A stretch of DNA of 64,000 nucleotides from Patescibacteria group bacterium (GTDB taxonomy: Bacteria > Patescibacteriota > Microgenomatia > UBA10105 > UBA927): the NCBI GenBank assembly GCA_035510735.1, contig DATKGN010000010.1, forward strand, positions 27,814-91,813, written 5' to 3'. Below, piece after piece: positions 1,802-50,463 of this stretch (positions are counted from its first letter, which is position 1; the number at the start of each line of letters is the position of its first letter). Under the pieces are notes generated by a model. The model had not been told where the DNA came from and did not search any database. It was given only the letters and a program-made list of their open reading frames with translations. The translations under genes and the position numbers were made by a program.

Positions 1802-4087
1802 ATGAACGTTTCATCGTGGTGCACGAAAGTAATCCGTTGGTCGTTTTATCTTCTCTTCATCCTCGTGCCCTTAATTCTCACACCTGTCAATTACGAACTG
1901 TTTGAATTCAATAAGATGATGGTGACGTATGCCATAACGATCATTATCGCCTCAGCATGGCTCATCAAGATGGTGAGCGACCGGCAAGTACGCATCGTGA
2001 AAACTCCCCTTGACGTGCCGATTGCACTTTTTGTCGCATCCCAACTAGTCAGCTCCGTGTTTTCCATAGATCCCCACGTTTCGTGGCTTGGATATTACAG
2101 CAGGTTTAATGGCGGCATGTGGTCAGTGATTTCCTACGTCGTACTCTACTATGCATGCGTCACTAATTTTTCAACTTCAGGCTCCAATGAGGCACAACGC
2201 GAAGATAGAGGCTCGAAGTCTTCTATCATCTATCTTCTCCTACGAGTTATCCTGGGCACCGCCTCGGTCGTCGCTCTTTACGGCGTCGCAGAGCACTTCG
2301 GCATCGATAAACACCTCTGGGTCCAGGATGTGCAGGACCGCGTATTTTCAACACTCGGACAACCCAACTGGCTCGCTGCATATTTGATCGCACTGTTCCC
2401 CATCGCGATGGCACTCGCGTTACAAACTCAAATTACAAAACTCAAAACTCAAAATAATATAAAAGTTCCAAATTCAAAACAATTTGGTTCTTTAAATTTT
2501 GAATTTCCTTTGGATTTGGGGTTTTGGATTTGGAGCTTTATCTCTGTTCTTTTTTTCCTCGTTCTTCTGTTTACCCGTTCACGCTCAGGACTTTTAGGAA
2601 TTACTGTCGCTGACGTATTATTCTGGGTCGTCATGTATTTGAGCACAAAGGATGTCAAACGGATACTCCCAGCTGGAATTCTTCTCCATGTTCTTTTTGT
2701 CGTCATCGTGTTTTTCAACGGAACCTCGATAAGTCAGATCGATAACCATTTCACTTTAAGCGGCATACAAAATATTTTTGCTAGTCACACCGCTTCAAAA
2801 GCGCCAACTCCTGCTCCGCCCGCATCAACCGGGCCGCAACTTGAAGAAGGCGGCACGGAATCAGGCACTATAAGGAAATACGTCTGGCAGGCGGCAGTTT
2901 TTGCATGGCAGAGCTCCGTCAAAACGGTTCTCATAGGGACGGGAACGGAAACATTTACCTTTGATTTCTACCGGTTTAGGCCTGCCGGACACAACCTCAC
3001 GAGCGAGTGGGATTTTCTTTACAATAAAGCACACAATGAATATCTCAATTATTTAGCGACAACCGGTTTATTCGGTTTAGGAAGCTACCTATTTTTTATC
3101 GGAGCGTTTATCGTTTGGTTTATTAAATCCCAAATTCTAAGCACAAAATCCAAAATAAATCTAAAGACTCAAATACAAAATTCAAAACAATTCGGAAATT
3201 CTGAATTCGGATTTCCTTTGGATTTGGAATTTGGAATTTTGGAATTGGCCCTCTTCGCCGGCTGGATTTCCATCCTCATTACGAACTTTTTCGGTTTCTC
3301 CGTCGTCATCATGCAACTATTGCTTTTTCTCATACCCGCCATGGCGTTTGTTATCTCAGAGTCAGAGTCAAAAATGCTCCGGGTCTACGTGGTGAAACTC
3401 GCTGTCCCATCATGGATTTCCTGGCTCGTCGCAATATCAGGCATCCTTCTCGTCGTCCGGGTCGGATCGTATTGGTACGCCGATAAACTCTATGCGACCG
3501 CCTATCGTCTCGCGAGGAGTGGACAGTACGCTCAGGCAGAAAACTATGATCTCCAATCGATTGCAATAAATTCCAACGAGCCCGTCTACCACGACGAACT
3601 AGCTACGACGATCGCAACTATAGCCGTCTCGCTCTTTGATCAGCAAAATGCAACGCTCGGAGGCCAACTTGCTAACCGTGCACTCAAAGAAAATGACCTG
3701 ACACTTATGACCTCGCCGCAAAACGTCAATTTCTGGAAAACGAGAACGAAAATTTTCTACTCCCTGTCGGCTTATGACCCGAAACTAAACACCGACGCGA
3801 TTAATGCGCTTACACAGGCGTCTGCGCTTTCTCCTAACGACCCGAAAATTTATTACAACCTAGCGATTCTGTATGGGCGCCAGGGAGATAATCAAAAGGC
3901 AATCAGCCTCCTCCAAAAATCAATTTCCCTCAAACGAGATTACCACGATGCGTACTATGCGCTCTATATATTTTATATTGATTTGAAGCAACCGGATCTT
4001 GCAAAAGGAGTCCTCCAAGATTACGTCAGCCATATTGACGCCAAAGATCAGCAATTTACGGAATTATTAGGTAAAATGGGACAATGA
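1802..4087 (+). CDS. O-antigen ligase (Wzy_C)-like polytopic membrane protein with C-terminal TPR repeats
   Basis: Many TM helices. Motif 'YNKAHNEYLNYLATTGLFGLGSYLFF' resembles the Wzy_C/O-antigen ligase signature. The C-terminus has TPR-like 'YYNLAILYGRQGDNQKAISLLQKSI'. Two in-frame copies of a palindromic repeat are present (see findings). Confidence 0.6.
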   Translation: MNVSSWCTKVIRWSFYLLFILVPLILTPVNYELFEFNKMMVTYAITIIIASAWLIKMVSDRQVRIVKTPLDVPIALFVASQLVSSVFSIDPHVSWLGYYSRFNGGMWSVISYVVLYYACVTNFSTSGSNEAQREDRGSKSSIIYLLLRVILGTASVVALYGVAEHFGIDKHLWVQDVQDRVFSTLGQPNWLAAYLIALFPIAMALALQTQITKLKTQNNIKVPNSKQFGSLNFEFPLDLGFWIWSFISVLFFLVLLFTRSRSGLLGITVADVLFWVVMYLSTKDVKRILPAGILLHVLFVVIVFFNGTSISQIDNHFTLSGIQNIFASHTASKAPTPAPPASTGPQLEEGGTESGTIRKYVWQAAVFAWQSSVKTVLIGTGTETFTFDFYRFRPAGHNLTSEWDFLYNKAHNEYLNYLATTGLFGLGSYLFFIGAFIVWFIKSQILSTKSKINLKTQIQNSKQFGNSEFGFPLDLEFGILELALFAGWISILITNFFGFSVVIMQLLLFLIPAMAFVISESESKMLRVYVVKLAVPSWISWLVAISGILLVVRVGSYWYADKLYATAYRLARSGQYAQAENYDLQSIAINSNEPVYHDELATTIATIAVSLFDQQNATLGGQLANRALKENDLTLMTSPQNVNFWKTRTKIFYSLSAYDPKLNTDAINALTQASALSPNDPKIYYNLAILYGRQGDNQKAISLLQKSISLKRDYHDAYYALYIFYIDLKQPDLAKGVLQDYVSHIDAKDQQFTELLGKMGQ

Positions 4088-17521: not shown

Positions 17522-17896
17522 ATGGAAAAGTCCGTATTTAACTTCGAGAGACTCACGGTATACCAACGTGCATTAGCATTCGCCTTGAACATTTATTCAC
17601 GTACACAAAAATGGCCGCGGGAACATCTTTTTGGTTTAACAGATCAACTAAGAAGAGCATCTTTATCCATTCCGTTAAATATCGCTGAGGGGTATAGTAG
17701 GTCGCGAAAAGACTTTCAGCATTTTTTGACTCTATCACGGGGATCCTGTTTTGAATGTGTTCCGATAATAAAACTAGCGGAGTCTCTCACTTTGCTTACT
17801 TCAAAAGAAGCTGATATGTTTTATAATGAATTAGAGGAAATTGCTAAGATGCTTAGTGGACTACGGAGTTCGCTATTGAAACAACCTAAACTCTAA
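17522..17896 (+). CDS. four-helix-bundle protein (23S rRNA IVS protein family)
   Basis: 'DQLRRASLSIPLNIAEGYSRSRKDFQHFLTLSRGSCFEC'. Bracketed by TAGAG-family repeats on both sides. Confidence 0.8.
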   Translation: MEKSVFNFERLTVYQRALAFALNIYSRTQKWPREHLFGLTDQLRRASLSIPLNIAEGYSRSRKDFQHFLTLSRGSCFECVPIIKLAESLTLLTSKEADMFYNELEEIAKMLSGLRSSLLKQPKL

Positions 17897-31620: not shown

Positions 31621-32244
31621 ATGGCAGACCAAACAACAGTTCAGGAAGAAAAGAAAACAGAAGTAGCTCACCCTGCGGCCCCACCGATTATTGAGGAAGC
31701 TAAACCGCGCGTCGCCCCCGCCAATGCAAAATGGTACGTTGTGCACACATATTCAGGCCATGAAAACAAAGTCTCCACAAATTTGAAGCAGCGCATTGAA
31801 ACGATGAAATTGGCTGATAAAATCTTTGATATCGTCGTACCAACCCGTAATATCGTGACAGTGAAGCACGGTAAAAAGGAAGAACAGAAGGAAAAGATCT
31901 TCCCGGGGTACATTCTCGTCAAAATGGTGCTTGATGACGAATCCTGGCTCGCTGTGCGGACTACACAAGGCGTAACGGCATTCGTAGGCGCCGGCAATAA
32001 ACCAACACCAATCTCAGAATCCGAGGTAGCCACAATCCTGAAGTTCATGCAGATGGAAGCGCCGAAATACAAAACGTCCTTCTCTATGGGTGAAGCGGTG
32101 AAAATTGTTGACGGGCCGTTTGCCGACTTTTTGGGTACGATTGACGCAATTGATGAAGAAAAAGGCAAAGTGAAGGTGTTGGTCTCAATATTCGGCCGCG
32201 AAACGCCGGTTGAGCTAGATTTCTTACAAGTATCAAAATTATAG
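31621..32244 (+). CDS. nusG: transcription termination/antitermination factor NusG
   Basis: NGN domain 'KWYVVHTYSGHENKV' and KOW 'GEAVKIVDGPFADFLGTIDAID'. Confidence 0.9.
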   Translation: MADQTTVQEEKKTEVAHPAAPPIIEEAKPRVAPANAKWYVVHTYSGHENKVSTNLKQRIETMKLADKIFDIVVPTRNIVTVKHGKKEEQKEKIFPGYILVKMVLDDESWLAVRTTQGVTAFVGAGNKPTPISESEVATILKFMQMEAPKYKTSFSMGEAVKIVDGPFADFLGTIDAIDEEKGKVKVLVSIFGRETPVELDFLQVSKL

Positions 32245-32264
32245 ACTTATCTAGCGAAATCCAG

Positions 32265-32391
32265 AGCGAAGCGTCGGATTGAGCTAGACTTCCTTCAAGT
32301 TAGTAAATTATAAATCTTCTCCAGCGAGATCCCGATGAGCGAAGCGATATCGGGATACGAACTCGACTTCCTCCAAGTTTCAAAACTTTAA
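32265..32391 (+). repeat. two re-coded tandem copies of the nusG 3' end (last 10 codons + stop), each with an adjacent hairpin
   Basis: 'gagctagacttccttcaagttagtaaattataa' (32281-32313) and 'gaactcgacttcctccaagtttcaaaactttaa' (32359-32391) both encode ELDFLQVSKL-stop, the same as the nusG C-terminus, with different codons. Hairpin 'atcccgat-gagcgaagcgat-atcgggat' lies at 32329-32356. Confidence 0.75.
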
Positions 32392-35468: not shown

Positions 35469-35888
35469 ATGGGCAATCCGCGGACAAACGGACAATTAAA
35501 GCGTGAGGAAACCGAAAACGCACTTATGACCATCATTGAGTGGCTAGCTGACCAAAACGAAGAGAAGTTCAGACCACGGACGCTTGAGGGTATATATTTC
35601 AAAGATCTAAAAGGAAGATCTCATCTCATATCATGGGCTAGATTTTCTGTAGAAAATCTAGAACTTCTACACAAGAGGCTTACGAGTGAATTGCGTGACG
35701 AACAGACGACCGGAGAAGATCGATTTACGTTTGGCACTATACGCAACTCACATGAAGATGTCCTCGGTTTAGCCTTTGCTCGTCCAAGCATCGCCCGGGA
35801 ATACGGTGCAAACAGCAAACTTCTCGATCATATGATCGCCGCAGAGGGAAATGTCACTCTCAAAGCCAGCTGTTCTAAGGAAACATAA
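35469..35888 (+). CDS. hypothetical protein (inserted between rplA and rplJ)
   Basis: 139-aa ORF, no recognisable domain. Confidence 0.4.
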   Translation: MGNPRTNGQLKREETENALMTIIEWLADQNEEKFRPRTLEGIYFKDLKGRSHLISWARFSVENLELLHKRLTSELRDEQTTGEDRFTFGTIRNSHEDVLGLAFARPSIAREYGANSKLLDHMIAAEGNVTLKASCSKET

Positions 35889-35955
35889 CAAATTGACCTT
35901 CCCCAATCTCTCCGCACTTGTCCCCCATCTTATAATTGACTATAGTGAATATAGT

Positions 35956-36519
35956 ATGATTGATACGCGCATCGTGCAGTCCCTCAAAGACTCAGCAAGC
36001 GTATTTGTGACTGAGTGCGTCAATAACCCCCAAAAGTGCGGACTCTCGCGGAGTGAAAAGAATTGGATGGAGGAATTAAGTAAAGTCTACCTCTGTGCCG
36101 AGCTTCACGTCGACCTCCCTGCCCATCCAACCCGCGAATTCCTGGAAAAAATCAGGAAAATGACGGAATTCGGCCACGACAGCGCCGTTACGACGCGTAT
36201 GATTCTCTACAGCGCCAATATCGCCTGCGAGAAGGATTTTGCTACCAACACTCCCGCCTATTTAGCCACGCTCGAGCACCACCAGGAGCACTGGAGCCAG
36301 AAACATGTTGAATCCCAGCATGCATATATACAAAAACGGTCGATAGAGGATTTCATGCAGGCGTATTTTGATACACCGGAATCAATATCAGAGCCCGAAC
36401 TCACGTTCTACCTCACTCTCTACTTTAAGCATTTTTATCGACTCCTCTACCAGTTTATGCTATTCTATACGCAGTCGCAGTCACCTGTTTACTATGGCAG
36501 AGGAAACCCAAAATCCTGA
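35956..36519 (+). CDS. hypothetical protein
   Basis: Track ORF 35851-36519. An internal ATG at 35956 (MIDTRIVQSL) avoids overlap with the upstream gene. Confidence 0.35.
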   Translation: MIDTRIVQSLKDSASVFVTECVNNPQKCGLSRSEKNWMEELSKVYLCAELHVDLPAHPTREFLEKIRKMTEFGHDSAVTTRMILYSANIACEKDFATNTPAYLATLEHHQEHWSQKHVESQHAYIQKRSIEDFMQAYFDTPESISEPELTFYLTLYFKHFYRLLYQFMLFYTQSQSPVYYGRGNPKS

Positions 36520-36655
36520 CAACGACGAAGCAAGGTTTGATAAATCCCGCAATATGACGGCCGTGCTTGAGCGCGCTCTGGAGGGAGCTGGGAAAATCGG
36601 CGCCAAACTCATAGACGCCGCAGGCGAAATCTTCAGCATGATTTTTAAACGGTAG
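36494..36655 (+). CDS. small hypothetical protein
   Basis: 'MAEETQNPDNDEARFDKSRNMTAVLERALEGAGKIGAKLIDAAGEIFSMIFKR'. Weak. Confidence 0.25.
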   Translation: MAEETQNPDNDEARFDKSRNMTAVLERALEGAGKIGAKLIDAAGEIFSMIFKR

Positions 36656-36718
36656 AGTCCCCTTTCTTGCATTTTCCAACCCTCCTTGTTATAAAGCCAC
36701 TAACTACCCGAACGTGAT

Positions 36719-37561
36719 ATGACCATCCAAGAACAAGCTGAATTAAAACGCGGAGCCCCCTCGCATGAAACTCCAACATTTGATAAGGAATCGGTCATTG
36801 GCGCTACTCGTGTCTTAATTGGCCAACTCGACGGTTTGAGGCAGTTTGCAGATCGCGAGAACCTTGACACCTCAATGGAAATCCTCACAAATCTCTTAGT
36901 GCGCGTGCCTCCCACGGAGGAAATCAGGGAATCGCTCACTGATTTTGTTACCAATGTGCCGGATAAATCAAATGAGAAGGAAAAAAGACATTATGTCCGG
37001 ATGCTCAGATTCCTGGCTCCATTTGTCGACTCCGCAAGCGTACTTAACGGTTTAAATCATGCAAAAAGATATCCGGGATTCAACAAGTTCAAAGATGCAC
37101 TCCCGATCCTCATACAGCTAGATGATAAGTCAGAGGCAATCTCAGCGATGCAAACATTAGCAAAAAATACGAACAGGTGGTCCCGAGAATTTGTATCAGT
37201 AGCAACCGTTTTTGAAGGGTTAGCCTATATTCACAACGAAGATGCGGTCACTATGCTCCAAGAAGGACTCACGATAACAAACCAAAAAATGGAAACAATT
37301 GAACGCAAATCGGCCTACACTGCAAAAGACGGTGATGATATGCACGCGTATTCCTATATCCGTGAGTCCATAATATCCGCGCTTGCCCATAATAACGACC
37401 CTCATGCGCTGGCCGTATTAACACAAGAACTTGAAATTGTGACTAATCAGATAGTCGATTATAAGGAAGCAAATAAAAGAGTTTTCGAAGTAAATCATAC
37501 AACGAATCTGCTAGAGATAGTCAGAGCACTGATGGCGAAGGCTGATGGGCGCGCCGCTTGA
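36719..37561 (+). CDS. hypothetical alpha-helical repeat protein
   Basis: 280 aa, helical-repeat-like composition. Overlaps the next ORF by 17 nt in another frame. Confidence 0.45.
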   Translation: MTIQEQAELKRGAPSHETPTFDKESVIGATRVLIGQLDGLRQFADRENLDTSMEILTNLLVRVPPTEEIRESLTDFVTNVPDKSNEKEKRHYVRMLRFLAPFVDSASVLNGLNHAKRYPGFNKFKDALPILIQLDDKSEAISAMQTLAKNTNRWSREFVSVATVFEGLAYIHNEDAVTMLQEGLTITNQKMETIERKSAYTAKDGDDMHAYSYIRESIISALAHNNDPHALAVLTQELEIVTNQIVDYKEANKRVFEVNHTTNLLEIVRALMAKADGRAA

Positions 37562-38303
37562 TCAAAAAACGTTTGACGCGTGTATGCGGGCGTTCTCGTT
37601 GGGTAACACAGAAATAACGAATATCGTCGGGTATTCGTTGCTCCCATCCGGCCCGCTCGATCATGACGAAGCAACATTTGAACTTCGCCCATGGGACTAC
37701 CAAGAATGTGATCTGTTTATGGCGGAGTTGGCAATACTCCATAATCAGGGTTCAGAGAGCGACAAGCGTCTTGTCAAAAATAAAACGCTCTACACAAACA
37801 TGGTTGAGTTTGTCCCTTATAACCACCGCGCACACGATTTAGACGTTATAGCCCGATACATCGGGATAAATAATAAATCATTCTTACCTGAAGCGGTATT
37901 CAATACTCCAATGCCTACCCTCCAAAACATCGATAACCTTATGATGAATAAAGCTATTGTAAAACTTCCTAAAATAATCGAACCCATTTGGTATCAAAGG
38001 TTTGGTCCAATAAGCATGATAACACTGCATAACCCTCATGCATCCGTTGAGGATCGTATTGGCGCGGCGATGGCAATAAAAGATAAATATGTGCGAAAAC
38101 CCGTGGAAAGCATTGAGAGGTCACTTAGATTCGCAGAATTAGTGGGTGAGCTTTTTAAGAACAATCCTGATCTTGTAAAAACTGCTGTGGCAGCAGTCTG
38201 TGTGAGCATTGTGCCCGGACGGACCGCAGAACTGCTTAACAACTTCTCCGGTGATACGGCCATTAAGCGCGGTATTTTGTGGGCACTTGAACAATCGAAG
38301 TAA
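37545..38303 (+). CDS. hypothetical alpha-helical protein
   Basis: 252 aa. Possibly the continuation of the previous ORF after a frameshift. Confidence 0.4.
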   Translation: MGAPLDQKTFDACMRAFSLGNTEITNIVGYSLLPSGPLDHDEATFELRPWDYQECDLFMAELAILHNQGSESDKRLVKNKTLYTNMVEFVPYNHRAHDLDVIARYIGINNKSFLPEAVFNTPMPTLQNIDNLMMNKAIVKLPKIIEPIWYQRFGPISMITLHNPHASVEDRIGAAMAIKDKYVRKPVESIERSLRFAELVGELFKNNPDLVKTAVAAVCVSIVPGRTAELLNNFSGDTAIKRGILWALEQSK

Positions 38304-38474: not shown

Positions 38475-39020
38475 ATGGAACACCCATCGAAAGGGACGCC
38501 GAAAAAAGTAAATACCGTAACCGAACTAACGGAGAGGGTCGCAAAGGCCAAATCCATGATCGTCGTGGAATATCAGGGTGTCAAACACAAGCAATTTGAA
38601 GAGCTCCGGAAAACCCTCAGGAAGACGAATGCGGAATTTGTCGTGACGAAAAACAGACTTTTCAAACGCGCGCTCGGCGATAAATCAAAATTACTGGAAT
38701 CACTTCTCGAACAGCCGACGGCTACCCTTTTCACCTATGGTGACGAGGTTGCCCCCCTTAAAGATCTCATGAAGTTTTTCAAGACTGTGGGATTCGGCAA
38801 AGCCAAAGGCGGGCTGTTGGGCACAACCGTATTAAGTGACACGGATGTAACCCGGCTTTCCACCCTTCCCACCCGAGAACTTCTCCTCGGCAGTCTGGTA
38901 CGGCAGCTTAACGCGCCGATCCAAAGCCTGCACTACGGACTTCAATGGAATTTGAATAAGTTAGTTTGGGCGATAAATAGTATAAAAAATTCAAAATCCG
39001 AAGCACTAAATTCAAAATAA
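38475..39020 (+). CDS. rplJ: 50S ribosomal protein L10
   Basis: 'AKSMIVVEYQGVKHKQFEELRKTLRKTNAEFVVTKNRLFKRAL'. Confidence 0.85.
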   Translation: MEHPSKGTPKKVNTVTELTERVAKAKSMIVVEYQGVKHKQFEELRKTLRKTNAEFVVTKNRLFKRALGDKSKLLESLLEQPTATLFTYGDEVAPLKDLMKFFKTVGFGKAKGGLLGTTVLSDTDVTRLSTLPTRELLLGSLVRQLNAPIQSLHYGLQWNLNKLVWAINSIKNSKSEALNSK

Positions 39021-39029
39021 TATCAAAAT

Positions 39030-39115
39030 TCAAATATCGAATGTTTTGAATTTAAGATTTGTTCATTTAGATTTATTTTGGATTTAGAGTTTTGAAATTA
39101 GGATTTGTTTATTGA
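39030..39115. repeat. 'aattcaaaa/ggatttgg' low-complexity repeat, related to the in-frame repeats inside the O-antigen ligase gene
   Basis: 'aaaattcaaatatcgaatgttttgaatttaagatttgttcatttagatttattttggatttagagttttgaaattaggatttg'. Confidence 0.45.
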
Positions 39116-39134
39116 AAGGTGGTGACAACAAATT

Positions 39135-39524
39135 ATGGCAAAATTATCCAAAGATGAAATACTAGCGGCAGTAGGTGAAATGACCGTACTCGAACTGGCA
39201 GATCTCGTGAAAGCACTCGAGGAAAAATTTGGTGTCACCGCAGCTCCTGTCGCCGTTGCCGGTGCCGCACCAGCAGCCGCAGCAGATAGCGGAGAACCCA
39301 AAGAGGAACAAACAGTATTTAACGTCGTTCTGGCTGCCGCAGGCGCCAACAAAATCGGCGCTATTAAAGCGGTCCGTGAACTCGTTCCGACGCTCGGTCT
39401 TCAGGAAGCAAAGACACTCGTTGAGAGCGCTCCCAAAGAAGTCCTGACAGGCGTTAACAAAGCAGCAGCTGAGGAAGCCAAGAAAAAGCTGGAAGCCGCA
39501 GGGGCCAAGGTGGAACTAAAGTAA
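39135..39524 (+). CDS. rplL: 50S ribosomal protein L7/L12
   Basis: '[34 protein letters not shown]...[12 protein letters not shown]'. Confidence 0.9.
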
Positions 39525-39925
39525 TAACTGAAGCAAAAGGAAGTCCGTGGTCAGTTTTCGAGTTTTCGAGAAATTACTGCCACGGATCCCGCATGAGCGC
39601 TCTTTCGAGTCGAGGATGTAAACCTCGCGAGAAAGTAAGCTTCGTGCGGGACGAAAAAGAAATTAGAGGCCGCGGGCGCGAAGGTCGAGCTCAAATAAAA
39701 AATACGATAAAACCCAATTCATATTGGGTCGAGATCCCGACGAATAATATGAGTCGGGATAAGAGCTCAAATAAGAATAAAATAGAAATCCGGCGAAGCC
39801 GGATTCGAGATTCTGATGAGATTTACGAATCAGAATGTGAGCTCAAATAATTATAAAATAAAGTCCAGCTTAGCTGGACCGACATCCCGATAAGTTATAC
39901 GAATCGGGATAAGAGCTCAAGTAAT
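39525..39925 (+). repeat. array of hairpins each followed by a re-coded copy of the rplL 3' end plus stop codon
   Basis: 39669-39698 'gccgcgggcgcgaaggtcgagctcaaataa' encodes AAGAKVELK-stop, the same as the rplL C-terminus, with different codons. Then 'gagctcaaataa' at 39763 and 39839 and 'gagctcaagtaa' at 39913 (ELK-stop). Each is preceded by a hairpin such as 'atcccgac..gtcgggat', 'attctgat..atcagaat' or 'atcccgat..atcgggat'. Confidence 0.75.
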
Positions 39926-39933
39926 GACTTTCT

Positions 39934-40013
39934 TGTCATCGTGAGTCGAGTCTTCGAGACGTGGCGATCTCAAACAAGATTGCTTCGCCGTCCGAACGGT
40001 CTCGCAATGACAT
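39934..40013. repeat. TGTCAT-element (complete; TIR 'tgtcatcgtgag...ctcgcaatgaca')
   Basis: Internal 'tcgagtcttcgagacgtggcgatc...gattgcttcg' is nearly identical to the copy at 61945-62037. Confidence 0.7.
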
Positions 40014-40025
40014 TACTATAAAATC

Positions 40026-40070
40026 TAAAAATCCCCCGCAACCCTTACAGGGTAAAGGGGGATTTTTTTG
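40026..40070 (+). terminator. strong rho-independent terminator
   Basis: 'aaaaatccccc-gcaacccttacagggtaaa-gggggatttttttg'. Confidence 0.6.
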
Positions 40071-40155
40071 ATAACACGTGTAATCTACTTGACAATTAGA
40101 CCCTTTTGATCGACACTACGCACCAATAACTCCTGCCCGCCAAAAAGGAGAATAT

Positions 40156-40707
40156 ATGAAGGAATATATATTAGGTCATGTCGAGAAAGGTCCCGCTCCG
40201 GTTCAGGCGGCGGACCGGTTATTAGCCAAGCTTCTTGCAAATCATATTGTGTTACGATCATCCTACATAGCGGATAAGGATTATCCGAACCTTCGTAAGG
40301 GGGCTCCAATAGAAAACCGCGAGATACGGTTGGGTTTAGTCGATGCGCCAAAAGGTGCACCGCATGTCGTATTTGTCGGAAAGGAATCCGACCTAAAGGG
40401 GATGAAGGCAGCGTTCTTACAGGGAGAAACAACCGAGACATGGTCCCTTAAAATCCAATCCACCAACAAAGTCTCCGAGGGTGAACGAACGATTACCATC
40501 GTCAACGGCTTTGTGTGTAGCGATATAATGAAAGTCGAAGACAGGTTGGAGCCGTTAGTTATCAGCACCCGCGCGATGGGGACCGGCAATCTTATAGAGG
40601 GACATCCCTCAACACCCGCTGATGGGATTATTGTTTTTGTCGGCACACGACTGAGTGATACAGGTACAGAGATAGCCAGCATAAACGCTGTACATGTAGG
40701 AGATTAA
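40156..40707 (+). CDS. hypothetical protein
   Basis: 183-aa ORF with SD-like 'aaaaggag' upstream. No recognisable domain. Confidence 0.45.
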   Translation: MKEYILGHVEKGPAPVQAADRLLAKLLANHIVLRSSYIADKDYPNLRKGAPIENREIRLGLVDAPKGAPHVVFVGKESDLKGMKAAFLQGETTETWSLKIQSTNKVSEGERTITIVNGFVCSDIMKVEDRLEPLVISTRAMGTGNLIEGHPSTPADGIIVFVGTRLSDTGTEIASINAVHVGD

Positions 40708-41094: not shown

Positions 41095-41182
41095 TGTCAT
41101 TGCGAGTCCGTTCGGACGGCGAAGCAATCTCGTTCACCAAGAAAGAGATCGCCACTCCGCCAGTCGGCGGATCGCGATGACA
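41095..41182. repeat. TGTCAT-element (TIR 'gtgtcattgcgag...atcgcgatgaca')
   Basis: Contains 'ggcgaagcaatctcg'. Confidence 0.65.
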
Positions 41183-41262: not shown

Positions 41263-41339
41263 TTGTCATCCTCGGGTCAAGCCCGAGGATCTGCTTTAAA
41301 TTGAAGCCAAACCGATTCCCGCCTTCGCGGGAATGACAT
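41263..41339. repeat. TGTCAT-element variant ('ttgtcatcctcgggtcaagcccgaggat...ttcccgccttcgcgggaatgacat')
   Basis: Shares the 'cctcgggtcaagcccgaggat' arm with the in-gene copy at 50152-50179. Confidence 0.6.
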
Positions 41340-41599: not shown

Positions 41600-41800
41600 A
41601 TGTCATTAGGAGATGAATGGCCGGACCTGTTAACAGTCCGCGAGGTCGCAAAAATATTACGCGTCTCGCCGCTCACGATCAAACGCTGGGGCAAGCGCGG
41701 TAAGCTTCCTGCTATCCGCATCAACTCACGGGGCGACCGCAGATATAAGAAAGAGGCCGTCATGTGGCTCCTGGGACTACAGCAAAAAGGGGCTGTGTAA
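41600..41800 (+). CDS. excisionase/AlpA-family helix-turn-helix DNA-binding protein
   Basis: 'LLTVREVAKILRVSPLTIKRWGKRGKLPAIRINSRGDRRYKKE' is the Xis/MerR-type HTH of excisionase-family proteins. Confidence 0.6.
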   Translation: MSLGDEWPDLLTVREVAKILRVSPLTIKRWGKRGKLPAIRINSRGDRRYKKEAVMWLLGLQQKGAV

Positions 41801-41872: not shown

Positions 41873-42226
41873 TCACTTAGAAAGACTTGAACGGAGTGCC
41901 GTAAGCATCTTCGATATCTCAAATATTTTCTGTTTTAACTCTTGAAAATCACGTTCTGCTATAAGGCGTTGATCCTTTGCAATAGTGATAATTGGTACGC
42001 ACTCATAGCAAGATCCCCTGGCAATTGAAAGAAAATGCTGAAAGTCTTTTCCTGTTCTACTGGACCCCTCGGCAATATTTAGAGATATAGATAAAGCGGC
42101 GCGATTTAGCTGATCCCCTAAACTAAATCGCAGTTGTGAGGGCCATTTGCCCGTTAAAGTGAATATTTTGTTTGATAGAACAACAGCCTCCTGATAAACC
42201 AACAGATTTTCAAATCGAAATTCCAT
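41873..42226 (-). CDS. four-helix-bundle protein (23S rRNA IVS protein family)
   Basis: 'MEFRFENLLVYQEAVVL...GDQLNRAALSISLNIAEGSSRTGKDFQHFLSIARGSCYEC'. Flanked by 'gttacttagttacttgg' / 'ccaagtaac' inverted octamer repeats (41825-41880 and 42232-42262). Confidence 0.75.
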   Translation of the reverse strand: MEFRFENLLVYQEAVVLSNKIFTLTGKWPSQLRFSLGDQLNRAALSISLNIAEGSSRTGKDFQHFLSIARGSCYECVPIITIAKDQRLIAERDFQELKQKIFEISKMLTALRSSLSK

Positions 42227-42267
42227 AGTGTTACTAAGTAACCAAGTAACTTGCGTTGCTCGCGTTG

Positions 42268-43086
42268 CTATATTGACACTTTCGCTTCCCCAAACTCCCC
42301 TATTTTTTTCATCGATCGTGCATGACCCCACACAAAATCAAACATCTGCTTCTGCATGGAGGCAAAGTCGGGATTCACAATCTCCACGCAGAATATATCG
42401 TCGTGTAAATAGTGATATTGGGCCGTCACATCGTTATAAATAACAATCTCGGAGGTAATGGCAAGTTCTTTGGGGTCCATATACCGCGGCGTCCAGAATG
42501 TAACCGCAGCTGCTTTGATTTTCGTCCACGCCTCCATATGGGCGATGTTGGTGAGCTGGAGCGTATGAATTTTATGTTCAACCAGTTCCGCTCTCACTTT
42601 TTCACTGAATTCCTGGGGAAGGAAGGCGGTCATGCTTGTGGCCACTTCATAAATCCGAAGCTCTCCCCGGGCCCTGATCGAATTCCATGTGACGTGCTTT
42701 AACCCGTCAATCCCATGATGGTAATAAACCTTTGATCCCGTCATCCCCCGCCTGTGGAGGGCCGCAAGCTCCTCAAATACAGCAGGCATGGAGGCTTTGA
42801 GGCTGTCCAGATCGCTTTGCCTCTGGGCAAGGATGAGTTCCATCTGCTCATACGGGCTGGCCGTGAACTTGAGACCAAGCGTATCGAACTTCTGGGTGAC
42901 AAGTCCGTGAGCCTCCAGCTTGTCCAAAAGCCGATACACGCGTGTTCTGGCCATATGGATCTGACGGCTGATCTCAAGCGCTGAAAGCGTGCCTTTTTCC
43001 AGTAAATACAGGTAAATCTCCACTTCGGGAGTGGCAAGGCCCAAGCGGGTCAACGTGCGGGTGAGTATGTCTGTTTGATCGGACAT
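42268..43086 (-). CDS. TrmB-family transcriptional regulator (sugar-responsive type)
   Basis: N-terminal 'LGLATPEVEIYLYLLEKGTLSALEISRQIHMARTRVYRLLDKLEAHGLV' TrmB HTH, plus a C-terminal effector domain. Confidence 0.7.
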   Translation of the reverse strand: MSDQTDILTRTLTRLGLATPEVEIYLYLLEKGTLSALEISRQIHMARTRVYRLLDKLEAHGLVTQKFDTLGLKFTASPYEQMELILAQRQSDLDSLKASMPAVFEELAALHRRGMTGSKVYYHHGIDGLKHVTWNSIRARGELRIYEVATSMTAFLPQEFSEKVRAELVEHKIHTLQLTNIAHMEAWTKIKAAAVTFWTPRYMDPKELAITSEIVIYNDVTAQYHYLHDDIFCVEIVNPDFASMQKQMFDFVWGHARSMKKIGEFGEAKVSI

Positions 43087-48972: not shown

Positions 48973-50463
48973 TTATTTATTGATTCTATACACCCCGACG
49001 AACTCATCATCCAGCGGTTTTTTATATTTTGCCACTAGCGTCATGTACTTTTCCAAACCCCCGTATTGATTTCCCCGTGACACAAAATACCACGGACGAT
49101 TGTTAAATACTCCAAAGCCTGCGACTTCTTTCATTTGTTCAAGGTAAAAGACCGGAATATGTTCGCGCGTCATATAGCTTAGGACCGCATCCTCAGGATT
49201 GCCGCTGTCAAGGCGCACAAAGACCACAATCGGCTGTTTTGCCGATTGGCGAGTCAGATACCCGACAGCCTCACTGACCCCCCAGCCTGACGTCCAGCCG
49301 GTCACATATTGGCTGAAATCCAACCGCGCCGCGGGAAGCGGTTTCAGAATAGAATAGAACTGTAACGGGAAAAAACTCAAAAGAACGCCCTCAAATGCAA
49401 CGGAAACGATAACAGCATACACAATAACACGCTTCTTACAATACGATAACCATAAAGCCGCCAATAATAATAAAGGAACCGAGCTCACGGCGAGATAACG
49501 GGCGGTTAAACTCGTTAACAGCATATATTCGATGAATATCGGGCCGAAAATCCACAGAGCCAATACCTGTACTTCCCGTTTTTTCCAGAATTGCCAGAGT
49601 GCGATACAAAAGACAATAACGGCAACGGGCCCTACAAATGCAAGAAGCCAACTCACAATCGCCTGTGCATTATTGAACCATTGATCGGGTGGCGTTGCTA
49701 AAATTTGCATGAGTGTTCTTGTTCGCACAATAGCCGTCATAGTTTTTGAATAATCGATATTCGGATTAAAGAGCACCGGCACCATGAGGGCAAATGCCGT
49801 CAATACTCCGCAAATAACCCAACTGACTACCACCTGCCACGTGGCGGCCCACTGTTTCCAGTTGATAAGCAGGGTGAAAAATACCAAAGGAACCGCAAGG
49901 AGCATGGTCGATTTATACCACCAGCCTGTGGCAACAACCGCGCCAAGGAGTATTCCTTTTGCGAGGGTAGGCTTCTGGGAAAACAGCAAGGAAAGATACA
50001 GAGCAAGCGTGAAGCACGCGGTAACCGGGCTTTCGGCAAGAGCCAACGTGTCAAAAAGGATGAGAAATGGACAGAGTGCGATGAGGAGTAATGTATAGTT
50101 TATGTCATTCTCGCGCAGGCGAGAATCGGTATTCATTTTCAAAGAATATATGGATCCTCGGGTCAAGCCCGAGGATGACAATATGGAAAAAACGCCCCAG
50201 AAGGTTACACAGGACCAGAGGATGCTGACAAGCCGCATGGAAATCAAGGGATCGAAGGGCAAACGTTGTATTATACCAAATGAAATGGCGACGAGCGGCT
50301 GTTTGCCGTCAAGGGTCCACGCCCACCAACGGCTGGGATCCTGTAAAAACCCAAGTCCCCAGTGCATATAAATGGCTTCATCATTAAAAATCGGTAAGCG
50401 GAAAGCCAATAGGAGCCGGAGGGTCAGGAATAATCCAAATATCACCCAAATACGACGGTTCAT
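48973..50463 (-). CDS. GT39/ArnT-like (PMT_2 family) membrane glycosyltransferase carrying an in-frame palindromic-element insertion
   Basis: Polytopic membrane protein. Nt 50100-50180 is a TGTCAT-element read in frame as 'GLTRGSIYSLKMNTDSRLRENDINY'. Confidence 0.6.
   Translation of the reverse strand: MNRRIWVIFGLFLTLRLLLAFRLPIFNDEAIYMHWGLGFLQDPSRWWAWTLDGKQPLVAISFGIIQRLPFDPLISMRLVSILWSCVTFWGVFSILSSSGLTRGSIYSLKMNTDSRLRENDINYTLLLIALCPFLILFDTLALAESPVTACFTLALYLSLLFSQKPTLAKGILLGAVVATGWWYKSTMLLAVPLVFFTLLINWKQWAATWQVVVSWVICGVLTAFALMVPVLFNPNIDYSKTMTAIVRTRTLMQILATPPDQWFNNAQAIVSWLLAFVGPVAVIVFCIALWQFWKKREVQVLALWIFGPIFIEYMLLTSLTARYLAVSSVPLLLLAALWLSYCKKRVIVYAVIVSVAFEGVLLSFFPLQFYSILKPLPAARLDFSQYVTGWTSGWGVSEAVGYLTRQSAKQPIVVFVRLDSGNPEDAVLSYMTREHIPVFYLEQMKEVAGFGVFNNRPWYFVSRGNQYGGLEKYMTLVAKYKKPLDDEFVGVYRINK
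50100..50180. repeat. TGTCAT-element inserted in frame within a coding sequence
   Basis: 'tgtcattctcgcgcaggcgagaat...atcctcgggtcaagcccgaggatgacaa'. Confidence 0.65.

Follow-up and report, generated by a model that had tools for sequence, protein, structure and literature searches.

The rplL gene of an uncultured Candidatus Gottesmanbacteria lineage, encoding ribosomal protein L7/L12, is followed by a stack of displaced copies of its own 3′ end interspersed with small hairpins, and displaced gene ends of the same kind recur at several other genes in this and related lineages. The organism belongs to the Microgenomates within the Candidate Phyla Radiation (CPR), and the stretch of DNA analysed, here called the window, is 64 kb in length, with the loci taken from relatives numbered in the form LNNN. 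On balance, the arrangement is probably best explained by the stacking of small non-coding hairpin insertion elements in the last codons of rplL, which would have spread between lineages by homologous recombination acting through the duplicated gene ends. The best genome match to the RplL protein of the window is in a Gottesmanbacteria metagenome-assembled genome with 93% RplL identity.

The rplL open reading frame (ORF; 39135–39524, + strand) encodes a protein of 129 amino acids, identified from homologues and from the Pfam domains Ribosomal_L12_N and Ribosomal_L12 on an identical protein. It terminates in ...GAKVELK-TAA with its final nucleotide at 39524, the functional tail considered here being the last 14 codons and stop that are joined to the gene body (39480–39524, + strand). 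After a spacer of 129 nt these 14 codons and stop recur as displaced copy 1 (39654–39698, + strand), encoding the same peptide as the functional tail despite differing from it at 13 nucleotides, of which 12 are third codon positions, with no amino acid changed. Two structured elements lie in the spacer. Hairpin Z (GTCCGTGGTCAG...CTGCCACGG; 39543–39585, + strand) was defined from a minimum-free-energy fold and is also found in the rplL spacers of L106 and L109, its motif CAGTTTTCGAGTYTTCGAGAAA being confined to these two loci and the window. It is followed by element Y (39586–39652, + strand), a full-size member (~70 nt) of a family termed X/Y that was detected with covariance model R1 (68.6 bits, E = 6e-15; see below). 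Because a TAA lies in frame just upstream of displaced copy 1 and a start codon is absent, the copy could not be translated by itself and does not constitute a separate ORF. The same grounds led to the rejection of read-through and of autonomous translation of the displaced copies, and the reading-frame relation between the stop codon and the displaced copy is mixed, with five of nine in frame.

Downstream of copy 1 are three direct repeats, units 1 to 3, with lengths of 76, 76 and 74 nt (39699–39774, 39775–39850 and 39851–39924, all on the + strand). Each unit opens with an A-rich stretch and a 7-bp hairpin A, which the linker (T/C)CGA(G/C) connects to hairpin B (8-bp stem, 11-nt loop); two bases further on lies the 12-mer GAGCTCAA(A/G)TAA, which encodes ELK-stop. 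Hairpin A lies at 39712–39729, 39787–39805 and 39863–39879 and hairpin B at 39734–39760, 39810–39836 and 39884–39910, with the 12-mers at 39763–39774 (GAGCTCAAATAA), 39839–39850 and 39913–39924 (GAGCTCAAGTAA), the last matching by position the displaced ELK-stop copy of L012 and L001. Together the units form a 56-nt repeat family with a spacing of 76 and 74 nt and an identity of 70–73%. The four occurrences of the 12-mer GAGCTCAARTAA (39687, 39763, 39839 and 39913) are the only ones in the 64 kb, against a chance expectation of 0.67 with one mismatch allowed, a count of four being reached in one of 100 shuffles. Six perfect hairpins with a stem of at least 7 bp fall inside 39712–39910, with 56 across the whole window where shuffles give 31–46, and the region 39525–40075 folds far more stably than its shuffled versions (z = -10.8). 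Between units the stems differ by compensatory changes only, affecting five of seven pairs in hairpin A and three of eight in hairpin B with no pair broken, as in the compensated hairpin B stem of unit 2 (ATTCTGAT/ATCAGAAT).

The rplL end, the copy, the 12-mers and the hairpins had all been reported in a preliminary description of this DNA and are present where it placed them. The second copy, given there as the last nine codons and stop, does exist but is longer, extending over 14 codons and stop (39654–39698). The claim that the copies are synonymously recoded holds for this 14-codon copy but not for the three ELK-stop 12-mers, which are identical in nucleotide sequence to the end of displaced copy 1 except for one A-to-G change. 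The 12-mers are repeats of the older copy 1 tail, with only the 14-codon copy representing an independent recoding of the real tail. The reported absence of rpoB was confirmed for the window, and relatives likewise lack the gene at this position.

The units are followed by a palindromic TGTCAT...ATGACA element of 79 nt (39934–40012, + strand), which belongs to a separate small repeat family, and by the intrinsic terminator of the rplJL transcription unit (AAAAATCCCCC...GGGGGATTTTTTT; 40027–40074, + strand), conserved in L001, L012 and L091. When tested for a G+C-rich hairpin with a U-tract, only 40027–40074 qualifies on the + strand; the + strand hairpins of the array are without U-tracts, and hairpin A of units 2 and 3 is terminator-like on the − strand only. 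The same 966 nt recurs with 0–2 single nucleotide polymorphisms across ten contigs, which come from at least nine samples and from three repositories and assemblers; this rules out both an assembly artefact and a rare variant as the source of the array. In public annotations each of the ten contigs has an ORF of 85 amino acids called at 39593–39850, lying in another frame and spanning the hairpin array, which is almost certainly spurious. No known RNA family in Rfam matched 38900–40300 even at E values up to 10, bar a chance microRNA match, and ARAGORN detected no tRNA-like sequence or tRNA attachment (att) site at the rplL array.

Scanning the window with the hairpin-B stem identified a second site at the end of nusG (31621–32244, + strand; Pfam NusG and KOW), which terminates in ELDFLQVSKL-stop. 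Here a hairpin (AATCCAGAGCGAAGCGTCGGATT; 32258–32280) is followed by displaced tail copy 1 (32281–32313), making a first module at 32258–32313 (+ strand), and a hairpin B (ATCCCGATGAGCGAAGCGATATCGGGAT; 32329–32356) is followed by displaced tail copy 2 (32359–32391), making a second at 32329–32391 (+ strand). Each displaced copy comprises the last ten codons and stop of nusG, encodes the same ELDFLQVSKL-stop peptide and stands behind a hairpin of the rplL-locus type, with codon changes that include TTA to CTT and TCA to AGT, the latter serine switch being in copy 1. The 18-nt core of the nusG hairpin B, GATGAGCGAAGCGATATC, has an exact match in the rplL spacer of L116, in which the hairpin runs to ...ATCGGGA. 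A GCGAAGC mini-hairpin motif is also seen in the loops of the nusG hairpins (32245–32391). A scan of all ORF ends in the window found tail copies at rplL and nusG only, so that the displaced ends are stacked four deep at rplL and two deep at nusG; stacks are also present in L022 and L116.

Recurrence was assessed on two sets of 80 rplL loci, one drawn from reference genomes and the other from metagenomes, together with contigs fetched for close RplL variants. Recoded tail copies lie 3′ of rplL in about 20 Microgenomates loci from both genomes and metagenomes (L001, L003, L006, L009, L012, L022, L030, L091, L096, L102, L106, L109, L111, L116, L123, L129 and L159), with none in the non-CPR loci L056–L080. 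Displaced nusG tails are also found in L125, and recoded tail copies follow rplA in L127 and L137 and an HTH_17 gene in L022 and L109. In L124 (15690–16245) the mreB tail (Q/E)VKVTGGLR-stop is duplicated synonymously around an insert of 480 nt encoding a protein of 140 amino acids with no Pfam family, the only ORF cargo seen. Gene 5′ ends are duplicated in the same way. In L107 (1980–2170) a 58-nt duplication covering the Shine-Dalgarno sequence, the ATG and 14 codons is identical at 57 of 58 positions with a single synonymous mismatch, while in L135 (4050–4210) the gene head MISKRIGIDLG is duplicated with seven synonymous changes. The genes concerned are on the minus strand in both loci, and their 5′ ends harbour X/Y elements, the duplicated part taking in the Shine-Dalgarno sequence, the start codon and the first 11–15 codons.

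Across roughly 30 instances of displaced ends the cargo between copies ranges from 30 to 480 nt, and the duplication lengths of 12, 21–24, 33, 42–48 and 58–63 nt are not fixed. Certain insertion codons recur, being −14 and −3 at rplL in the window, −7 and −20 at rplL in relatives, and −10 at nusG in two lineages. In L003 the rplL tail repeats are identical at 14 of 14 nucleotides with a TGTCAT element between them, while in L022 a different hairpin family, of a type also present in L159, follows both rplL and the HTH gene in the same order. The existence of such young, near-identical repeats in L003 and L107 indicates that duplications arise de novo and diverge or are exchanged later.

Element Y has homologues in L009 and L106, and the related form X is present in L096, L102, L123, L125, L127, L135 and L137. 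Alignment of seven copies using RNAalifold gave compensatory changes in 10 of 17 pairs and a consensus with conserved internal loops GCU/UAA and GAG/CGA. The covariance model R1, built from this alignment and searched against 1.38 Mb, returned 28 matches at E < 1 in both orientations, located at rplL, nusG, rplA and rplJ ends and at two gene heads. In the 23 best matches (E < 0.001) 88% of cells were paired compared with 68% in shuffles, double-sided changes were present in 15 of 16 pairs, and the outer stem P1 is kept through covariation. The covariation score for these 23 matches was 0.528, whereas shuffles gave 0.19 (0 of 500) and slid structures no more than 0.134; the alignment is fitted to the model and favours the structure somewhat. 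X/Y is a real structured family that has no Rfam entry, with searches at both gathering and permissive thresholds returning nothing for the elements in the window or at nine related loci. Beyond the rplJ–rplL spacer, 12 of 14 X/Y copies (E < 0.02) lie between duplicated coding termini, invariably arranged as the attached copy, a spacer of 12–20 nt, the element and then the displaced copy, which in nearly every case starts 0–2 nt past the 3′ end of the element. The hairpins of the window units share with Z and Y the ATCCCG...CGGGAT outer stem and the ATGAGCG start, such that hairpin B resembles a miniaturised Y and hairpin A a miniaturised Z. Many ATCCCG...CGGGAT hairpins elsewhere are ordinary terminators.

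X elements in reverse orientation were also observed directly after the rplJ stop codon in L002, L006, L009, L012, L092–L094, L106, L107, L116, L118 and L120, with the rplJ frame of L120 terminating within the element. The rplJ–rplL spacer of the window is without a reverse X element, being AT-rich instead.

The divergence between attached and displaced copies bears on how they arose. Pooling 25 copy pairs gave a proportion of synonymous differences (pS) of ~0.9 and a proportion of nonsynonymous differences (pN) of ~0.09, the latter slightly inflated by the row for nusG copy 2 of the window, which was out of register by 2 nt, the real peptide at 32359–32391 being identical. These values exclude duplication in place followed by neutral drift, since at such divergence the peptide would be unrecognisable and a search by peptide would then recover only young, near-identical copies. 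Codons for the same residue differ at a frequency of 0.685 within a locus compared with 0.63 between the tails of random lineages, and the two copies at a locus have therefore evolved as translated gene ends in different lineages. The same comparison with the between-lineage null led to the rejection of deliberate maximal recoding.

Comparison with the closest relative, L091, whose RplL is 98% identical to that of the window, reveals mosaic ancestry around and inside the copies. The two rplL genes differ at 9 of 335 nt in the body compared with 13 of the final 55 nt (Fisher p = 4e-7). The functional tail of L091, ending GGCGCGAAAGTCGAGCTCAAATAA, equals the 3′ half of the displaced copy of the window at 23 of 24 positions, with the first 21 nt of that displaced copy matching the L091 tail at only 14 of 21. 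Over 39470–39500, L091 carries the codons typical of its clade (L001, L003) and the window resembles the distant L009. L091 is without the first module and without two of the three units, representing a nearly empty site; its single unit is closest to unit 2 of the window (64 of 76 nt) with an identical hairpin A and a hairpin B stem, ATCCTGAT/ATCGGGAT, that is a G-U intermediate, and is followed by a decayed GAGCTCAATAA and then the terminator.

Relative to L091, a block of different ancestry occupies 39470–39674 (+ strand), comprising the functional tail, the spacer, Z, Y and the first 21 nt of the displaced copy, with breakpoints at ~39470, at least 10 nt upstream of the repeat, and at ~39675, 21 nt inside the displaced copy. 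The simplest reading of these sequences is that the window lineage gained a foreign block of ~204 nt (~39470–39674) by double crossover, in which the left crossover would have fallen in the gene and the right one within the displaced tail copy belonging to a donor in which the duplication was already present. Since the two boundaries lie at different positions of the repeat, homologous recombination fits better than a fixed att core, a comparison that rests on the single strain pair of the window and L091. Tail similarity was rejected as proof of horizontal origin, the 88% identity between the window tail and that of L009 being equalled by unrelated bacteria; it was because tail similarity alone is weak that the L091 breakpoints were relied on.

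The L091 mosaic and the tail match at 23 of 24 positions bear out one part of the preliminary description, namely that insertions had brought in a replacement 3′ end and left a fossil stack, while the integrase-bearing elements proposed there to have done so are unsupported. No such element lies between rplL and a displaced copy in the window or in ~1.4 Mb of related loci, nor does either hold a distant displaced copy bracketing a large element. The proposal that the elements target rplL was likewise not upheld, given that the same hairpin type stands at nusG in the window and that the relatives have displaced ends at rplA, mreB, the HTH gene and two gene 5′ ends. The occurrence of the same hairpin at unrelated loci, named beforehand as evidence against the description, is real as regards the hairpin, but each locus carries the tail of its own gene and the copies are thus not chance similarities.

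Candidate distant ends in L037 and L160 were set aside, a masked tandem repeat accounting for the first and a local duplication or misassembly probably for the second, as was a candidate in L016, which proved to be a coding tandem repeat on the other strand. In the short L160 contig (566–1070) the rplL head (~100 nt, identical) is repeated 321 nt upstream, fused to a 3′ piece of rplJ, and is probably a local duplication or misassembly. Pattern scans of viral contigs gave random coding matches or none, providing no phage link.

In the reading favoured here, each insertion would be flanked by a direct duplication of the terminal codons, with the attached copy keeping the gene intact and the other lying untranslated 3′ of the element. 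Homologous recombination could then carry the module of terminal copy, spacer and element from one diverged lineage to another, probably following DNA uptake with natural transformation as the route, using the conserved gene body as the left arm and the displaced copy as the right arm. After such a transfer the functional tail would be that of the donor and the displaced tail the formerly functional end of the recipient, the copies being synonymously recoded because donor and recipient tails had both evolved under selection at the protein level. A stack would grow by repeated insertion or import at the same sites, to which unequal exchange between the short repeats may add. The first duplication might be made either by a transposase giving long and variable target duplications or by replicative template switching at hairpins.

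Parts of this scheme have counterparts in known systems. At Rhs, CdiA and type VI secretion system loci, recombination of incoming DNA within a conserved gene portion displaces the old 3′ end downstream, generating ordered vestigial stacks. The rplL array resembles these in being an ordered stack of 3′ ends that each retain part of the conserved region, but the tips at those loci are different toxins with immunity genes that diversify the protein, whereas here the peptide is the same for every tip, toxin and immunity ORFs are absent and the gain is a non-coding structured element. To our knowledge, the repeats made by the insertion sequences (IS) IS1634 and IS1549 are the only known transposition outcome resembling the duplications of 12–63 nt, and we know of no prior description of recoded coding termini associated with a MITE (miniature inverted-repeat transposable element). 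Like MITEs and the repetitive extragenic palindromic (REP), bacterial interspersed mosaic element (BIME), Correia and RPE families, the elements are short and non-coding with a terminal stem, occurring at many unrelated loci in both orientations and mostly at gene ends. Unlike MITEs, their duplication length is not fixed, and no cognate transposase or autonomous copy was found in the loci examined; unlike REP and BIME sequences they are direct rather than alternating repeats with no GTAG head, and the window has no Y1-transposase domain. IS1634 and IS1549 themselves generate variable target duplications of 8–514 bp (PMC2266710).

A number of observations weigh against this scheme. No recombinase, transposase, reverse transcriptase or nuclease domain was detected by Pfam among the ~50 ORFs of the window, duplications of 12 to ~63 nt fit no standard transposase, and no IS1634- or IS1549-like IS was seen in the loci examined. 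The right arm is very short (12–45 nt), and for the 12-nt ELK units, where RecA-type recombination is implausible, joining by microhomology or unequal exchange has to be assumed. No recognisable duplication accompanies eleven X copies that lie in reverse orientation in the rplJ–rplL spacer of relatives. Decayed copies will have been under-counted because the search for copies relied on peptide identity. Part of the difference from L091 may have arisen in L091, the choice between gain in the window and loss in L091 depending on one short contig and outgroup codons, and unrelated bacteria reach 85–88% tail identity over 48 nt by chance.

It is unlikely, though not strongly so, that the displaced ends are instead fossil attachment sites, left when small integrative or cis-mobilisable elements were inserted site-specifically by an integrase into gene ends through an attP carrying a replacement end, with tandem accretion and then internal deletion reducing them to a stack of attL and attR sites. 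The geometry is exactly that of attL and attR, with an element-borne copy restoring the gene and the native end displaced with synonymous differences, and both 3′ and 5′ gene ends are used in the loci described here. The e14 element integrated at icd is bordered at one end by icd itself and at the other by icdC, a C-terminal fragment (PMC13626634), and ICEs (integrative and conjugative elements) from the Tn5252/ICESa2603 family insert at the 3′ end of rplL (PMC7168690). As with e14 and phage 21 at icd and with the rplL ICEs, the inserts described here lie between a functional end and a synonymously different displaced copy, direct repeats of the target gene end flank the element, the copy on the element side restores the ORF, and tandem accretion can stack sites. 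The recurrence of insertion positions (−14, −7 and −3 at rplL, and −10 at nusG in two lineages) and an excisionase-like HTH_17 gene 2 kb downstream would also be in keeping with an integrase. Unlike integrative elements, there is no integrase in the 64-kb window or beside any of the ~30 instances, the cargo amounts to 30–480 nt, no distant displaced copy was found, and one hairpin family stands at several genes with different tails, which a single attP could not serve. The foreign block relative to L091 likewise lacks breakpoints at a single fixed core. Diversity-generating retroelement template and variable repeats were ruled out, there being no reverse transcriptase in the window and the substitutions being of all types and synonymous rather than adenine-specific.

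The absence of any mobile element is improbable. In that case homology-facilitated illegitimate recombination during natural transformation would have used the conserved gene as the anchor for donor DNA, with an illegitimate joint at the far end falling within the last codons of the recipient, and the hairpins would be terminator-like or stabiliser sequences that had flanked the donor genes at their 3′ ends. This would account for mosaic ancestry, for a cargo as heterogeneous as X/Y, TGTCAT elements, the L022/L159 hairpins and the 140-amino-acid ORF of L124, and for the many ATCCCG...CGGGAT hairpins that are ordinary terminators. It would not account for one structured family at the non-homologous rplL, nusG, rplA and rplJ ends and two gene heads in both orientations, a distribution that requires movement independent of flanking homology; nor would a random joint place the displaced copy almost always 0–2 nt past the element, and the near-identical duplications of L003 and L107 resemble target duplications. 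A functional cis-acting RNA array in the rplL 3′ untranslated region, made up of REP- or BIME-like stabilising or processing hairpins and grown by tandem duplications that included the last codons, is also improbable. Stems conserved through compensatory changes with a G-U intermediate in L091, the stability of the fold (z = -10.8), the position of the array after highly expressed genes and upstream of the true terminator, and its fixation in the population are all as such a function would predict. Against this, tandem duplication and drift cannot yield saturated synonymous divergence with almost no amino acid change, X/Y elements lie in either orientation with respect to transcription and also in 5′ regions, Rfam contains no match, and the + strand hairpins are without U-tracts, hairpin A being terminator-like on the − strand only. 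Finally, all the data come from metagenome assemblies, in which repeats can mislead assemblers, but the possibility that strain variants were collapsed in tandem, or that the copies are chance similarities, can be regarded as negligible. The ten matching contigs span independent samples, repositories and assemblers, the architecture is present in many independent lineages, a match of at least five residues and a stop has negligible probability, and only one shuffle in 100 contained four 12-mers.

A further, tentative possibility, which we regard as doubtful, is that X/Y and its miniatures constitute a new class of non-autonomous element colonising the first or last codons of essential conserved genes and carrying a diverged replacement end. 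Insertion would then be harmless, and the conserved flanking copies would act as universal homology arms for "homing" into related genomes, possibly helped by a trans-acting enzyme or nuclease. In synthetic recoded-rescue gene drives, of the home-and-rescue and cleave-and-rescue types, an element placed in the end of an essential gene supplies a synonymously recoded end. The elements described here resemble these drives in that a replacement end makes the insertion harmless, and differ from them in that no nuclease or guide was found and the recoding is no greater than between random lineages, giving no sign of selection for maximal divergence.

Other features of the region and its relatives were noted. 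The TGTCAT...ATGACA family (75–90 nt) has window copies at 39934–40012, 41095–41182, 41264–41338 and 50103–50180, its first hairpin often beginning ATCCTCGGG or ATCCCG, and its members in relatives follow nusG, rplK and rplL (L001, L003, L012, L035 and L037). The 66-amino-acid HTH_17 gene (MerR-like, excisionase-type) lies at 41600–41800, 2 kb 3′ of rplL in conserved synteny, and it is the orthologues of this gene that carry the recoded tail copies in L022 and L109. Two free-standing 23S_rRNA_IVP four-helix-bundle genes are present at 17522–17896 (+ strand) and 41873–42331 (− strand), the second having a weak bAvd-like match (E = 0.0027) with no reverse transcriptase nearby. Four ORFs without a Pfam family (35469–38303) are inserted between rplA and rplJ, and a gap of ~1.8 kb that includes a convergent Ig-domain gene separates nusG from rplK; because of these insertions and this gap, and with rpoB absent from the window, the classical secE-nusG-rplKAJL-rpoBC cluster is broken up. 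The presence of CUGAUGAG in hairpin B had suggested a hammerhead ribozyme, a possibility that was abandoned; hammerhead-like matches occur only elsewhere, in L102. These are type III-like (2227–2296 and 3598–3668, both − strand) with a complete CUGAUGAG...CGAAA core and score 33 and 32 bits, below the Rfam gathering score of 48.5; the pair lies ~1.3 kb apart in, or bordering, an apparent G+C-rich stretch that, from its ORF translations, is unlike the rest of the contig.

Searches of the literature on CPR bacteria and on MITEs found no account of the phenomenon. The genomes of CPR bacteria are tiny and gene-dense, and little is known of what allows mobile DNA to persist there or of the routes by which these bacteria exchange genes. 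The displaced ends at rplL, nusG, rplA and mreB indicate that the terminal codons of conserved genes can host insertions, providing a safe harbour in which an insertion costs nothing because it supplies a working gene end. The duplicated ends could at the same time serve as homology arms, offering a ready route between diverged lineages, and the displaced ends would then be an archive of past recombination in organisms that cannot be cultured. The case also exposes an annotation problem, in that a spurious ORF is called over the array, and it adds a new structured family of ~70 nt whose function is testable. Should the elements prove to form a new class, they would represent an element that homes into the ends of essential genes bringing a recoded rescue.

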